From positions 16,492,001 through 16,556,000 of the forward strand of contig OZ024747.1 in NCBI GenBank assembly GCA_964016885.1: 64,000 bases of DNA, given 5' to 3'. A program made the position numbers and the translations under genes. Of the stretch, positions 8,298 to 57,204 are shown piece by piece. Numbering within the stretch: the first letter of the stretch is position 1; each line of letters starts with the position of its first letter. The stretch is from Eledone cirrhosa (taxonomy: Eukaryota). Below the pieces are notes generated by a model that was not told the origin of the DNA, made no database searches, and was given only the letters and a program-made list of their open reading frames with translations.

Positions 8298-8512
8298 TAA
8301 GAAGAAATTATAAGATGGTTAAAAATGTTCCATGTATTTTATTATGCGCAGTTCAAAATCAAATATCATCCAGGGACGATATTTGCGTTCTCATCAGATA
8401 AAATAGGGAGACATTATATGAAGCTTTAAAAAGACACTTGTGAGCAAGGTAGTGTCTAAACAACATGTGTAAATACATGGAACTTTTTTAACCATCTTTT
8501 AATTTCTTCTTA
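8298..8512 (-). mobile_element. Short Penelope-derived element with hammerhead (8335-8405) and inverted 40-bp tail duplication
   Basis: Minus strand reads tattttat CTGATGA [stem II] GAAC TGCGC ATA ataaaata. 8298-8340 is inverted at 8471-8512. Same family as 56400-56570. Confidence 0.75.
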
Positions 8513-8518
8513 TATATA

Positions 8519-8598
8519 CTCCAGTCCAATAAACTGTTGAGTGCTACTTATCCGATATTTGCATTGCGTTATTGTGCTACAATAAAACTCACCTCGTA
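8519..8598 (+). mobile_element. ~80-bp element in a TA tract (second copy at 48772-48843, minus)
   Basis: CTCC..TCAA.AAACTGTYGAGTGCTACTTATC...CTACAATA..ACTCACCT is shared by both copies; a related tail lies at 56137-56170. Confidence 0.6.
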
Positions 8599-8788
8599 CA
8601 TATATATATATATATATATATATATATATATATATATATATATATATATATATATATATATATATATATATATATATATATATAAATATATATATATATA
8701 TATATCCAGAGAGTGTAAGGCCGAGTTACTGTAGGTTAAGCCGGCTGAGCACTCGATGTTTAAGTTCACATTATTTACACATTCATAA

Positions 8789-8880
8789 TTTTCAGCAGGC
8801 AAAGGGAGTGCTAAGCTTTGAGGAGTACCAACAGTACGAAAGAGAGATTTGTCACCTTATCTCACCTTGTTTGCTGAAAA
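8789..8880 (+). ncRNA. Degenerate type I hammerhead ribozyme
   Basis: taagct TTGAGGA gtac-caaca-gtac GAAA gagagattt GTC acctta. Flanking TTTTCAGCAGGCAA/TTGTTTGCTGAAAA extends stem I. The core is mutated. Confidence 0.5.
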
Positions 8881-8991
8881 AAGAAGTAAGTGACATAGTC
8901 TCTACTTTAAAACAATAGCGTAAGGTCTTCAAAATTATTTTAATTAAGCATACAGTGTATTGCAAAATACACTATGTAATATATATATATA

Positions 8992-9995
8992 TAACGGAGG
9001 AGTTGTGTGAAGGAACCAGATGGACCATAACGCACCAGAGTACTCAATACTTAGGGTAGTAGAGTGGGCAATAGGAGAAAGTATGACCACGACGTCAGAG
9101 CTCAAGCCGTTTCGACCTCTATTTCTGGACTAAAGTAAGAGTTTTTTTAGTCTGGTAAATAAATAGCCGAACATTTCAAGCGTACTTCCTTATATGGAAA
9201 TATTGTAGTTGTCAAGGGGATTTGTCAACATGTGTAGCGGACACAGACAAGTCTATCATGGCAGTGGATACGGGGTTCGGATGGCTAAACTTGCCTGTAG
9301 AACGATAGGGGAGGGGGTAGAGCCGGTCAAGCGTAGAAGGTGAAATCTACACGGCAAATTCAAAGGAATGTCTATGAAAAGGCCAGAGGAGGTTGGCGAA
9401 AAATGGAAACGAACGAGGAAGAAGTTCGGTGGTGGAAAGAAGTGATAGGGGGAGACAAAGGGAAGAAGAGAACATGGAGGAAAAGAAAAGAGGTACATCT
9501 ACCTATATCAGTAGGGGATTACCCTATCTTTTTCGGCAAGTGGGGTGTTTCAGCCCTAGTCTACCCACCCGGATCGTTAGGGGCTTTGAGGGCGATGTAA
9601 GTCTTCCGCAATCTCTGTTTGCATGCAGTTCCCAGTTCGACTTTTTATTTAGGAGTTGATCCTTTGTAAACAGCATTTGTAATGTTTCCTCCGAGCATAA
9701 GTTACACGGACGGCATTTTCCCGTGTACGAGTTAGCTCTGGACAGTAAGCTCCAAGTAAGATGGTAAGTTACATTATTATCTTGGAGGTCCCTCAACCTC
9801 GGAAATGACCTGTACTACCCATACATGAAACCAAACGACAACCTGCACTACATCCACCGCCGCTCTAACCATCCTAGAAACATCATCAATAATCTAGTTA
9901 AAAACATCTCCCTCCACATGCCTCGTTTGTCCGCCCCACATATCTCGTTTGTCGGCTAATGAGCAGCTATTCGACAAACATGCGACTCATTATAA
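8992..9995. mobile_element. Rearranged Penelope-like fragment: terminal repeat + GIY-YIG C-terminus (minus) fused to RT thumb fragment (plus)
   Basis: 9524-9796(-) LTWSLLSRANSYTGKCRPCNLCSEE..LLNKKS parallels the C-terminus of 51310-52467. ~9795-9990(+) YYPYMKPNDNLHYIHRRSNHP parallels YAPYHKPNERLTYVNAGSNHP. 8992-9120 matches the tail at 44880-45008. Confidence 0.8.
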
Positions 9996-10454
9996 CCAGA
10001 CCCTCAAGCTCTTTCAATAGAGAGTGCATACCCTCCACGTATTCCTTTTTGTAACACCTAACGCATTTTCCGTATGCAGACCCACGTGTTTATCTCATAC
10101 TTCTCTTGCGTACTACCTCATATCCATACACGTTCCTTCTGTTTTCTTATATATATTCTGTACGCATTTTCTTTGTACGGTCTGAGCAGACTATGTACTG
10201 TAATACCATGAACGCCCATTATGTGGCCTTGCGTGAAGATTGCATACGTAGATTGATCCATGTTCGCAACGTAACAACATCTCTGTAGACACATATAACT
10301 GGGCGGACCCTTTCATGTATAGAACACTGTGCGTATCTCTATGTGCCGTTATATGTATATTTTTTATATGTTTAATATTGTTAATATTTTTTATATTTTT
10401 AATATATTTTATATCATATATTTTTTCATATATATGTATATGCGTATATGTATG

Positions 10455-53955: not shown

Positions 53956-54874
53956 ATCCTGTATCAATAATTTTAGAATGTTTTTTTGTGATAATACAGG
54001 GTTACATCACTGAAGCTACCTTATACCTTCTTAAAGATACATTTTATGATTATTGTCTTTTTGCTTATGTATTTTCTTAGTTACCACTTTCTTTAATCTT
54101 GCCCAACTTGATAAACTCCTTGAATTGCTCCCTAATTAAATTACTTAAATTGCTTAGATTATTGTACCTATTGTGCCTAAGTTGTATCTGTTGAAGCAGC
54201 CCTTTGAAAATTCCTCGGATATCCCAAATACCGTAATTTTTAATTTTTAACTTTTAATGTATAATTTTCCTCAATTCGTTTTTATATTTATCCTTAAAGG
54301 CTCTCTAAAATTTTAATTCTTCGAAGGGTCTCTCGGAAGAAGTTCCTATTAGAAATAGTAAAGGGGCCTTTTCTGAGAGATTTATGGAAGGCTCTCTGAA
54401 TTAACCTCTAATTGATTAGTTTCTTTCAACCTAGTTTTCGATTCAGTTTTCTGAATTTTGTAAACGTCATCTCGGGGGAAGAAGGTTTTTTTCTTTCGGA
54501 AAAATTTTTTTTTCTCTAGAAGAAATTTCATAGGAACTCTATATATTTTTTAGGGAAACTTTATATTTTTATTTTCTTATTTTATTAGCCTCTTAATTTT
54601 ATTCTAGACTAATAGGTTTATTAGAGCCTGTAAGCTTTATGCACTCATTGAGGGATTTTCTGAGGTGCTTCTACGGGACCCCAAGTCTTTTGGTTTAATC
54701 TTGATGCGTGAATTATATATTTTTGTCTAATTTTTAAACTTCAAACCCTGACCCCGACAACTAATATAAAAGAGCCCCCCTTAAAGCGGAGTTGCTGATG
54801 TATACAACAATTTCAAACTGCTAGCCTTGAGTGATACGTTGATGTAAACAATGATCTTGCAATCACATGTTATA

Positions 54875-54920
54875 TGCCTTGATAAGTCCCACATGGGGTC
54901 GGACGAAACGGCTGTCGGCA
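54875..54920 (+). ncRNA. Type I hammerhead ribozyme (U3-A8 variant) in the PLE terminal repeat
   Basis: tgcc TTGATAA gtcc-cacatggggtc-ggac GAAAC GGCT GTC ggca, immediately followed by AATAAA. Confidence 0.8.
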
Positions 54921-55154
54921 ATAAACTTGTTATAATGTCATAATAGTTCCTTTGTTCTTTTTCACTAATATTTCTGCTCTGCGTATACGCATAGAGCTTA
55001 ACTAGCTACCGTCACATATTTGGTAAGTCAGACGTGATCATCGCGATTCACATACGACCTACCATACATCTTACTTATATATATATATATATATATATGT
55101 ATATATATATATATATGTATGTGAGAAAAACCACAGACCCTCCATCTCAACTCA

Positions 55155-55192
55155 CCTTTTGAAAAGCAGAAGAACTGCGAAAGCTGTAAAGG
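55155..55192 (+). ncRNA. Minimal type I hammerhead (U3-A8 variant), partly decayed
   Basis: cctt TTGAAAA gcag-aagaa-ctgc GAAA gctGTA aagg; the sister copy at 45148-84 restores GAAACCGGTA. Confidence 0.6.
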
Positions 55193-56467
55193 AACCAAAT
55201 AAATATATATATATATATTTTTTAAATAAGACTCCAGTTGCATTTTCTATTTCATCTCTTTTTCTTTATATTTTCACTCGTGTAGGACACCTCGGTTATT
55301 TTTCATTTTGTAAAAAAAACCTCACTTTCTAATATATATATATATATATATATATATATATATATATATATATATATATATATATATATATATATATATA
55401 TATATATATATATTAGTAAGAAAGGAAAGAAAATGCTGACAGATTTTTTCCAGTGAAAAATAGTTTAAGTATAAATTAGTAATAAGTAATGGTTAGTATT
55501 CAGTGTTAGTTTCGAGTTTTTACCGGTTGCGCATTTCAAATGCTTTTCAAAAATAATTTTGTGATAGAGCGTTCGTGATTAGGTTGGTTGTTGAATGTCA
55601 CGCGAATATATATATATATATCAATTAAAAAATCGATATATATATATGAGAACTATATAAACACGTAGAGCAAATATTTATTATAAGAACAGATTAAAAT
55701 TTAAGGAAGGAATCACTGCTGTCACCCTTTACAGGATCTTCTGAAACGGTATATGTATGTGTGTGTGTGTGACAGAGAGAGAGAGAGATTGTGCGTGTGT
55801 GTAACTTAACGGCCCCCTTCCTTCACGAATTACCATGGGATTTGTACTTACTAAGTCAACCGCCGAGAAACCTGTACATTTTGGGAAGACCAACATTTAC
55901 CTATGCATACCAGTTTCACTTCCACACATTACCAATGTTGCCGAAGGGAATGGCGATGGCAGCAGTGACGTGGCAACTCATTTCTAGAGCTACGTAAACA
56001 GGAGCAAAGCAAAAACACATTGTGTTGCTCAAAATCACAACGCATCATCCAATCCGGGAATCGTACACACAACTTCCACATTCAGAGCCCAACGCTCAAA
56101 ACAATAAGGCACGCGTATATATATATATATATATATGTAGGAGGTGAGTTATATTGTAGTACAAATTCTTTTAATTTATACATTATCTTCCAACGGTTTT
56201 TTCAACCTCTCTATGTAAAACAATATATTTTTCTCAGTTATAAAAGCTATCTCTCTCTCTCTATCACCCATCTCTCCTCCTATCTCATCCTTCCTCACTA
56301 TACTCCCCCCCTCCACTTTTTACTCTCATCTCCTCCTCTTGTTCATCCCCCCCCCCTCAAAAATTGTTTTTCCCCAATATCACACATCAATCTAAAACTA
56401 CTTATCATATGTTGATTTAAAACTGCACTATCCACAAGTGTTTTTTAACCTTCATATCATGTCCTCC

Positions 56468-56538
56468 TGTTTTATCTGATGAAAACACAAATGTTATTGC
56501 ATGATGATATTTGTTTTTGAAATGCGCATAATAAAATA
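56468..56538 (+). ncRNA. Intact type I hammerhead ribozyme
   Basis: tgttttat CTGATGA aaacacaaatgttat..atgatatttgttttt GAA ATGCGCAT A ataaaata. Palindromic stem III, AUA cleavage site. Confidence 0.78.
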
Positions 56539-57204
56539 CATGGAACTCATTTAGCCATCTTTTGATCTTATATATATATGTATATATATATATATGTATA
56601 TGTTAAAATTCCAAAGAAAAAGCAAAGAAAAAAGAGTATATATATATATATATAATATGAATATACATACAAATACACACACACACATATATATATATAT
56701 ATATATATATATATATATATATATATATATATATTGTGTGTGTGTGTGTCTGTGTGTATTTGTATGTAATTATTTTCGTATTGTATATATTTAATTTCAT
56801 AATTTCAAATCAATTGAAGCGTTTGTTTTACGAAATTTATTTCCACCATTATTTCACGCATGAATAAAATAAGCAGTTCTTGTTTGATTTGGTATTGTCT
56901 TATTTTTTTATAAGTTTTGCTTGAAATTGTTAACAAGGTAATATATGGTTGGTTAGGCGGTGGTGTATATAGAACTTTCTGGAAGAAAGTGGTTTATCAT
57001 ATCAAATTGCTGCATAATATTTAAATGAATAAAAAATGAAATTCTCCATGAAAATAGGAAATGTTTTGTAAATAATTTCATGAAGATATTGCTACGGACA
57101 TCCAATAATTATCATTATTAATATTAATGGGGTTTTTTACGCTCCTTCTGAAAAATTATAATTCTAAATAATATCACTAATGATGATATTTTATTATTAT
57201 TACT

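Follow-up and report, generated by a model that had tools for sequence, protein, structure and literature searches.

Truncated Penelope-like element ends and putative retrozymes carry the hammerhead motifs at TA microsatellites in an octopus intron

What are the many hammerhead ribozyme (HHR) motifs that crowd one intron of the octopus Eledone cirrhosa, and how did they arrive there? The window analyzed here is a stretch of 64,000 nucleotides of a 3.0-Gb genome (GenBank assembly GCA_964016885.1, contig OZ024747.1, positions 16,492,001 to 16,556,000 of the forward strand), in which the original prediction had described HHR-bearing mini-retroelements targeted to TA microsatellites. Our analysis indicates that the feature is real and is mostly explained by the known biology of Penelope-like elements (PLEs). 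With high probability, the window combines truncated 3' ends of at least seven PLE families with three circularly permuted HHR repeats that lack an open reading frame (ORF), all of them in (TA)n, and the repeats are likely to be copies that PLE reverse transcriptase (RT) made in trans from tandem or circular RNA. Repeat families are numbered F1 to F10 below, and genomic loci carry the prefix L.

The HHR motifs of the window are genuine as sequence motifs, from which self-cleavage is predicted. A strict type I descriptor returned four complete motifs (14204+, 41741+, 54879+, and 56476+), compared to 0.15 per shuffle at a score of at least 9 (40 shuffles, maximum 1). A relaxed descriptor returned five type I motifs with no departure, namely, the same four plus 7904-, compared to 0.24 flawless motifs per shuffle (25 shuffles, maximum 2). 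Its one-departure matches at 13601, 34824, 39442, and 46541 look chance-like, yet they exceed the shuffle prediction. Rfam gave no match in the window at the gathering score; in a run by E value, no HHR family was among the 150 matches listed of 297, and those listed were microsatellite driven and of microRNA type. The 12 sites named in the original prediction comprise three intact motifs (14204+, 41741+, and 56476+), six full-length but mutated motifs, and three halves. Relative to their own families, and in the standard numbering of HHR positions, 8397- has GAAA>GAAC, 8818+ four changes, 40950+ G12>A with loss of stem I, 42957+ GUA>GCA, 45148- U3>A, and 55155+ a broken stem III; 9088-, 21250, and 44888+ are 3' halves without CUGANGA. 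Since such sites are too mutated or incomplete for a descriptor, they were judged via their families.

To this end, 12 family queries were searched against the genome, each yielding at least 97 to 2722 first-look candidates, of which the top 40 were scored and 16 to 30 loci kept. The family counts given here refer to these top-ranked samples, in which some loci are present twice and de-duplication merged F5 too far. Each of the 12 named sites belongs to a repeat family that has at least 97 to 2186 first-look candidates. A complete paired HHR was present in 25/30 loci of F1, 32/54 of F2, 1/30 of F3 (tail query), 15/30 of F4, 16/24 of F5, 20/24 of F6, 16/24 of F7, 11/16 of F9, and 14/16 of F10, counts that include the window copies and a few loci seen from both arms. 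For the half sites of F3 and F5, longer copies supply the missing CUGANGA and the matching stem I strand 56 and 85 nt farther upstream; some longer F3 copies have a C3-A8 mismatch in the core. The type I core (CUGANGA, GAAA, and UH plus the 3-8 pair) was found in 11/11 family representatives but in only 3/12 named window copies, the 3-8 pair being C-G in eight representatives and U-A in three. Although their stem sequences differ, the 11 representatives pair at 44/44 positions in stem I, 22/22 in stem III, and 21/22 at stem II positions 2-3, with stem registers set by eye; copies within a family are too similar for covariation. In F2, stem I fails to form if cleavage is placed at GUC, and the correct site is GUA. 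At least 10 type I cores or halves had been claimed; all 12 sites fall in families with the complete motif in other copies, and flawless motifs are far more frequent in the window than in shuffled sequence. The TA setting also stood, as all 12 sites lie at TA arrays. The estimate of about six families was low: the named sites hold seven (F1 with its variant F1b and F2 to F7), to which the HHR of the window's large PLE (F8) and two families that had been missed (F10, 7904-; F9, 14716-/15388+) are added. The reported position upstream of AATAAA applies to F1, F4, F5, and F8 and not to F2, F3, and F7; in F1, AATAAA overlaps stem I.

Longer copies revealed the origin of most units. In F1 (loci L193 and L194), F3 (L195 and L196), F4 (L200 and L201), F5 (L234-L237), and F9 (L339-L341), same-sense coding sequence for RT and a GIY-YIG endonuclease (EN) lies upstream of the HHR. 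It is contiguous with the HHR-bearing end in these families and in F8, while for F2 only the N terminus of the ORF was found. At the F1 locus L193, an inverted end is followed by a 623-amino-acid RT-EN frame, a 3' untranslated region (UTR), and the HHR. Because longer copies run into RT plus GIY-YIG ORFs, the units are read as 5'-truncated PLE ends. Their 3' ends are fixed and their 5' ends variable (~70 to >1500 nt), and the order is 3' UTR, HHR, an inner TA site (site A), a tail of 64-144 nt, an outer site (site B), and (TA)n. Hallmarks of PLEs occur in families here, including pseudo-long terminal repeats (pLTRs) or a partial tandem arrangement, 5' truncation, an inverted 5' copy, and an optional tail. 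Tandem copies show the tail passing into the 5' UTR and ORF start (F1, L206; F2, L233 and L049; F8, L273), which makes the template permuted or tandem; at the F9 loci L343 and L344, the HHR stands immediately ahead of the ORF. A CxCX5C linker with CxxC/CxH motifs occurs in F1, F3, F5, and F8, and F8 also has RWR and DKT; Pfam assigned no family to three F8 ORF pieces. F8 is a young family, with 40/40 scored tail matches 100% identical, and its window copy is itself 5' truncated and frameshifted.

Taken by their sequence, then, most units are 5'-truncated 3' ends of at least seven PLE families, of the Hydra clade or Neptune-like, and not mini-retroelements as first titled. The suggestion that they are PLE remnants is borne out for F1, F3, F4, F5, and F9 by upstream coding and for F2 by a tail that continues into a PLE ORF start, and it fails for F6, F7, and F10. 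The PLE at 49379-55078 had been offered as the source; no small window unit matches the F8 pLTR, none derives from that element (49379-55075), and each PLE-end family has its own parent. Several candidates were rejected: what looked like an F4 parent in L199 proved to be a chimera with its junction in a CA repeat, and the real one lies in L200/L201; EN matches upstream of F2 (L036) and F6 (L140) belong to neighboring elements; and F9 is not a Naiad element with an N-terminal endonuclease, its EN being C terminal. The F4 stem III variants ACCTGT/AGCGGT probably reflect ranking bias from the query. Locus L207 holds another Hydra-type PLE, whose RT is 65% identical to that of the window PLE; it has a fold-back 5' end of its own and, close to its 3' end, a different HHR. 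The ORFs of L193, L199, and L235 contain Asn/Thr-rich low-complexity stretches between RT and EN that resemble the N-rich inserts described for rotifer PLEs in the available text of PMC3846280.

A second kind of unit is represented by F7 (8812), F6 (14204), and F10 (7904), which never continue into an ORF and whose longest copies run into their own 3' end. The monomer period is 318 nt in F7, 426 nt in F10, and about 746-770 nt in F6, and the longest ATG ORF on the circle is 28-60 amino acids. Circular folding gave z scores of -7.5/-7.4 for F7, -6.8/-4.2 for F6, and -8.2 for F10 (the last helped by internal TA repeats), compared to -1.2 to +1.0 for five 318-nt PLE 3' ends used as controls; in F7, stem I extends into a long helix. 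Copies longer than one unit were seen at 3/24 F6 loci, at ~10/24 F7 loci, and in F10, for example, at L313/L316 (~1.9 monomers) and L321; no array beyond about two monomers occurred among the 64 sampled loci of the three families. The F7 tail measures 30 nt, and F10 also ends at two sites. A comparison of F7 with three sequencing runs of unrecorded kind produced numerous contig fragments, which have loose ends in TA at site B. F6, F7, and F10 thus have the makeup of non-LTR retrozymes (LTR, long terminal repeat), being ORF-less, circularly permuted, and strongly folded, and RNA circles are predicted for them. The alternative idea of a retrozyme-like system therefore applies to these three families and not to the remaining ones. 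As to whether the TA-flanked units have fixed ends and no ORF, the 3' ends are fixed, the 5' ends are variable, and an ORF is lacking only in F6, F7, and F10.

The insertion signature was then counted. Fixed 3' ends run into TA in 29/30 F8 copies, the exception being a tandem copy, and in 43/43 F3 copies, which upholds TA targeting. Both site A and site B occur in every family except F6, with 30-144 nt between them in the seven families for which the distance was measured. Where both ends of a head-to-head pair could be classed, 87 pairs combined A with B, 4 were B+B, and 2 were A+A; this count leaves out 16 pairs with one unclassed end, 137 single-arm loci, and F6 and F10, and F1 site A was classed by motif, with F5 over-merged as noted. 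Four families searched with a query lacking the tail gave 31 mixed versus 3 same-site pairs (Fisher P = 2e-6), F7 alone gave 8 versus 1, and the six clear pairs of the window (F2, F3, F5, F8, F9, and F10) were 6/6 A+B. With regard to 5' ends, only the F3 tail query was unbiased, and their clustering in F2 and F4 was set aside as an effect of the query. Of the 28 F3 loci, 14 start at a distance of 125-147 nt from the end, within HHR stem II or its loop; 2 begin at the cleavage site (97-100 nt), 6 are tail only, and 4 begin beyond 165 nt (L300 and L301 were dropped as duplicates of L299, and L284 was reset to 142 by inspection). Because these 5' ends mostly do not lie at the cleavage site, the templates were mostly uncut there. 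The F3 pile-up of 5' ends and inversion points in stem II (L277-L306) could be an RT stop at structure or the RNA 5' end, if a promoter fires there; the 5' ends of F8 copies are far less clustered. An empty-site search on whether insertions create or only target TA returned self-matches only.

The A+B pairing, retrozymes included, fits priming by both ends of a cut TA tract on one RNA and trans-mobilization by PLE protein. The GIY-YIG endonuclease would cut both strands of a TA tract, and reverse transcription would start from the two 3' ends of the cut at sites A and B, in the simplest case on one RNA, a form of twin priming. Both cDNAs would usually stop early, often near or inside the HHR, and would be joined head to head, or to the target, by microhomology, leaving short, mostly dead units. 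Retrozyme RNAs would self-cleave (probably as dimers through palindromic stem III), circularize, and enter the PLE pathway in trans. According to the available text of PMC11167929, AT-rich DNA is cut in vitro by a PLE protein, which extends both of its strands from two internal sites of the RNA that bound the tail. We are evenly divided on the stronger proposition that the octopus retrozymes, with a 318-nt ORF-less element obeying the same two-site rule, are direct genomic proof of HHR circles mobilized by PLE proteins and that the rule shows PLEs to integrate by using both ends of a TA-tract double-strand break as primers on a single RNA. If this is true, the mechanism can be studied by counting, given thousands of young copies in at least 10 families, and F7 or F10 would offer in vitro PLE assays a minimal substrate that already exists.

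Several observations weigh against this account. Among the representatives, F2 is the only one whose monomer minimum-free-energy fold yields the full three-way HHR. A complete parent of F2 was not recovered, and many of its copies (L211-L232) share one start ~300 nt above the core, at a GT-rich segment that directly follows (TA)n; this start may mark a fixed-length non-autonomous subfamily or a microhomology hot spot. F6 has a single 3' end and no inverted arm in 24 loci, which makes its PLE signature weaker. No PLE helper shares sequence with the retrozymes beyond 16-18-nt chance-level matches, and pLTR homology was not found. In the available text of PMC11167929, HHR cleavage was unnecessary for insertion in vitro and the priming site was not homologous to the target, and PMC3846280, as far as its available text goes, explains head-to-head palindromes by self-priming on an antisense template. 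Nonetheless, other readings of the units fare worse. That the motifs are chance matches in AT-rich repeat DNA, as the lack of an Rfam match and the chance-like motifs of the relaxed scans might suggest, is practically impossible given five flawless motifs where 0.24 were expected, stem pairing across families despite different sequences, and half motifs completed by homologous copies; the descriptor scans and cross-family pairing refute it. It is very improbable that all units are independent, fixed-length, non-autonomous mini-elements, akin to short interspersed elements (SINEs) or miniature inverted-repeat transposable elements and mobilized by the PLE family of 49379-55075. Many copies are indeed short, F2 has its recurrent 5' start, 14/28 F3 loci begin within one 23-nt stretch, and the identity of all 40 scored tail matches makes F8 young; however, 5' ends vary from ~70 to >1500 nt, long copies hold their own RT-EN ORFs, and no small unit matches the F8 pLTR, and for F1, F3, F4, F5, and F9 the idea is already refuted. 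Scarcely less improbable is an origin of F6, F7, and F10 as DNA-level minisatellite units propagated by unequal crossover or DNA transposition, their HHRs being a legacy of an old pLTR and no RNA step being involved. Tandem junctions do exist, and the available text of bioRxiv 10.64898/2026.07.22.740005 raises local tandem amplification of pLTRs and reports cleavage in 1/9 tested elements; yet the copies are dispersed over many contigs, 5' truncated, and TA flanked, F7 and F10 have inverted arms and two fixed 3' ends, no sampled array exceeds about two monomers, and circular folding is strong.

A more serious competitor, still clearly the less probable, keeps the same elements and replaces priming at both ends by one priming event, cDNA fold-back, and second-strand synthesis, the untailed end arising by an endonuclease cut at site A; self-priming on antisense RNA (PMC3846280, in its available text) is a possible variant. 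Junctions often lie in short palindromes, one tailed and one untailed arm are equally predicted, and PMC8557442, in the text available, attributes the tail to EN-mediated resolution. On the other hand, at F3 loci L279, L290, L292, and L299 and F8 loci L266 and L274, a tail-only arm meets an inverted arm that starts at site A, and no part is duplicated between them; unequal arms with non-palindromic junctions are common; and both sites are RT starts in vitro (PMC11167929, available text). Priming at both ends remains the preferred reading.

We compared these families with known systems. In the available text of Craig et al. 2021 (PMC8557442), Hydra-clade PLEs, including Hydra-1_Obim of Octopus bimaculoides, have the C-terminal GIY-YIG, CxCX5C linker, CxxC and CxH as well as RWK/DKT-type motifs, type I HHR toward the 3' end, insertion in (TA)n, and inverted 5'-truncated copy seen here; judged by motif, this likeness holds for F1, F3, F5, and F8, and for F2 by its ORF start only. 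Compared to that clade, 3' UTRs are longer here (~2.6 kb in F8), the element exceeds 5 kb versus <3 kb, tails measure 71-144 nt versus 30-40 nt, stem II domains reach 85 nt, and no HHR equals the Hydra-1_oBim motif listed in that text. F4 and F9 share with Neptune-clade PLEs a YLDDC RT, a CX2-5CxxC linker, a C-terminal GIY-YIG, and microsatellite targeting, with the clade assigned by motif only. Minimal PLE hammerheads as given in the available text of Cervera & de la Pena 2014 (PMC4209133) are likewise type I with palindromic stem III; single HHRs derived from truncated PLEs, pairs on opposite strands at distances of 100-700 bp, the U3-A8 variant, and a circular-template model are all on record there. 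Several families here differ in having a long stem II or a real stem III, and octopus is not mentioned in that text. The available text of PMC3846280 describes two inverted pLTRs of which one has the tail, as well as integration by pLTRs in trans. Poseidon PAc (Frangieh et al. 2024, PMC11167929) resembles our families in its two starts bounding the tail, cutting and extension of both strands, and AT-rich target; its sites, in the text available, lie inside the ORF and are not target homologous, whereas those here occupy TA-bearing positions upstream of the ORF start, and a pair takes one arm from each site.

The available texts on non-LTR retrozymes name PLEs as candidate mobilizers (Cervera & de la Pena 2020, PMC7229834) and describe retrozyme-PLE co-occurrence with pLTR homology in vertebrates (Li, Clavereau & Pollet 2026, bioRxiv 10.64898/2026.07.22.740005). 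The latter counts a retrozyme as active if its array holds at least two complete HHRs in succession. F6, F7, and F10 match the retrozymes of these sources in being ORF-less, low-GC, self-paired permuted monomers with a type I HHR that coexist with PLEs. They differ in occurring mostly as dispersed, truncated, sub- to two-monomer copies rather than arrays and in carrying PLE marks (TA target, tail, and inverted arm); the words microsatellite, inverted, and tail are absent from the main text of PMC7229834, and F6 exceeds the monomer size of 170-400 nt given there. PLE hammerheads, (TA)n targeting, tails, and retrozymes are thus already published, and the new parts are three octopus retrozyme families with PLE marks and the counted A+B rule; a literature search mostly without subscription journals found no paper on octopus retrozymes or PLE twin priming. 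So far, the animal retrozyme-PLE link has come from co-occurrence and pLTR similarity; the ORF-less families described here bear the very insertion signature of PLEs. The A+B count also constrains an unsolved integration mechanism and can be tested with the published in vitro system. PMC13282606 files 893 recently active octopus families as unclassified SINEs, with no mention of ribozymes in its available text; a large class of short octopus repeats, possibly among these, may be PLE ends and retrozymes, which may nest in each other's TA flanks and enlarge introns.

The host gene encodes a Cys-loop ligand-gated ion channel-like protein. Its exon at 843..1043 (-), which bounds the intron on the 3' side, matches an Octopus sinensis Cys-loop channel-like protein at 99% identity, and the preceding coding exon at 61736-61864 (-) forms the 5' boundary. 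The two are consecutive and join in phase, as in the O. bimaculoides model, across a GT..AG intron with junction QTHT|ALEG; therefore, the HHR-bearing span lies in one ~60.7-kb intron, as originally proposed. The O. sinensis protein model has an extra 14-amino-acid segment, for which five 5- or 6-residue probes gave no match in the window, and Pfam gave no family for the host exon stretch. Of the flawless HHRs (7904-, 14204+, 41741+, 54879+, and 56476+), 4/5 are antisense to the host pre-mRNA, and most in the host sense strand are broken; the numbers are too small for a claim of selection.

Along the window, units are nested in each other's TA flanks (F10-F1-F7-F3 at 7601-9180, F6-F9, F3-F4, and F8-F4). 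The putative F10 retrozyme, overlooked originally, forms a head-to-head pair at 7601..8279, with a tailed arm at 7601-8026 (-) bearing the complete HHR (core at 7904) and an untailed arm at 8037-8279 (+) with an HHR 3' half. Next come an F1 Hydra-clade end at 8312..8604 (arm 8312-8473 (-) with HHR core 8397 and tail 8510-8604 (+)), a 5'-truncated putative F7 retrozyme at 8779..8975 (+) with HHR core 8818, and an F3 Hydra-clade end at 8994..9180 (-) with the HHR 3' half only. The 5'-truncated putative F6 retrozyme at 14015..14505 (+) has a complete HHR at 14204 with a 97-nt stem II domain. It adjoins a head-to-head pair of F9 Neptune-like ends at 14513..15557, also overlooked, with arms at 14513-15122 (-), tailed, and 15326-~15535 (+), untailed, and HHR cores 14716- and 15388+ showing one stem I mismatch each; the F9 HHR has a CUU cleavage triplet and a GAAA loop II. 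An F5 Hydra-clade fold-back pair at 20990..21337 (tailed 20990-21238 (-), untailed 21238-21337 (+)) lacks CUGAGGA in both arms.

Farther along lie an F2 fold-back pair at 40876..41083, with GAAA mutated in both HHR copies; F1b, a diverged relative of F1, at 41725..41832 (+; ends approximate), with a complete HHR at 41741; and a tailed F2 end at 42951..43084 (+), whose cleavage triplet is changed from GUA to GCA. An F3 fold-back pair at 44814..45006 (untailed 44814-44870 (-), tailed 44870-45006 (+)) has HHR 3' halves only, and an F4 Neptune-like end without tail at 45076..45223 (-) has the U3-A8 core variant with U3 mutated. A solo F1 tail at 48755..48859 (-) precedes the F8 Hydra-clade PLE at 49379..55075 (+), which comprises an inverted untailed arm (49379-49864, HHR G12>U), a 5'-truncated ORF in three frames (49915-52464), the 3' UTR, an intact U3-A8 HHR at 54879, and a 104-nt tail (54972-55075). 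A tailed F4 end at 55119..55334 (+) has stem III broken in this copy, and an F1 end at 56132..56568 consists of an inverted tail piece (56132-56164 (-)) followed by 3' UTR and a complete HHR at 56476 (+), terminating at the inner TA site.

Further short TA-flanked repeats at 15845-16007, 42555-42722, and 55636-55744, in whose window copies no HHR was seen, are common in the flanks of the fetched loci. Two degenerate non-LTR elements at 26100-31870 and 31880-35400 have RVT_1 matches in Pfam, and the former has duplicated 3' parts ending in (TAA)11-12; the C-terminal motifs resemble those of an R4/Dong-type restriction-like endonuclease. Finally, an interspersed repeat of ~190 bp, probably a SINE, has ~10 window copies that are 70-93% alike (at 360-544, 3257-3471, 18369-18596, 32450-32644, 57187-57452, 58222-58790, and 61971-62710), and a 51-nt piece of it recurs in the F3 3' UTR.

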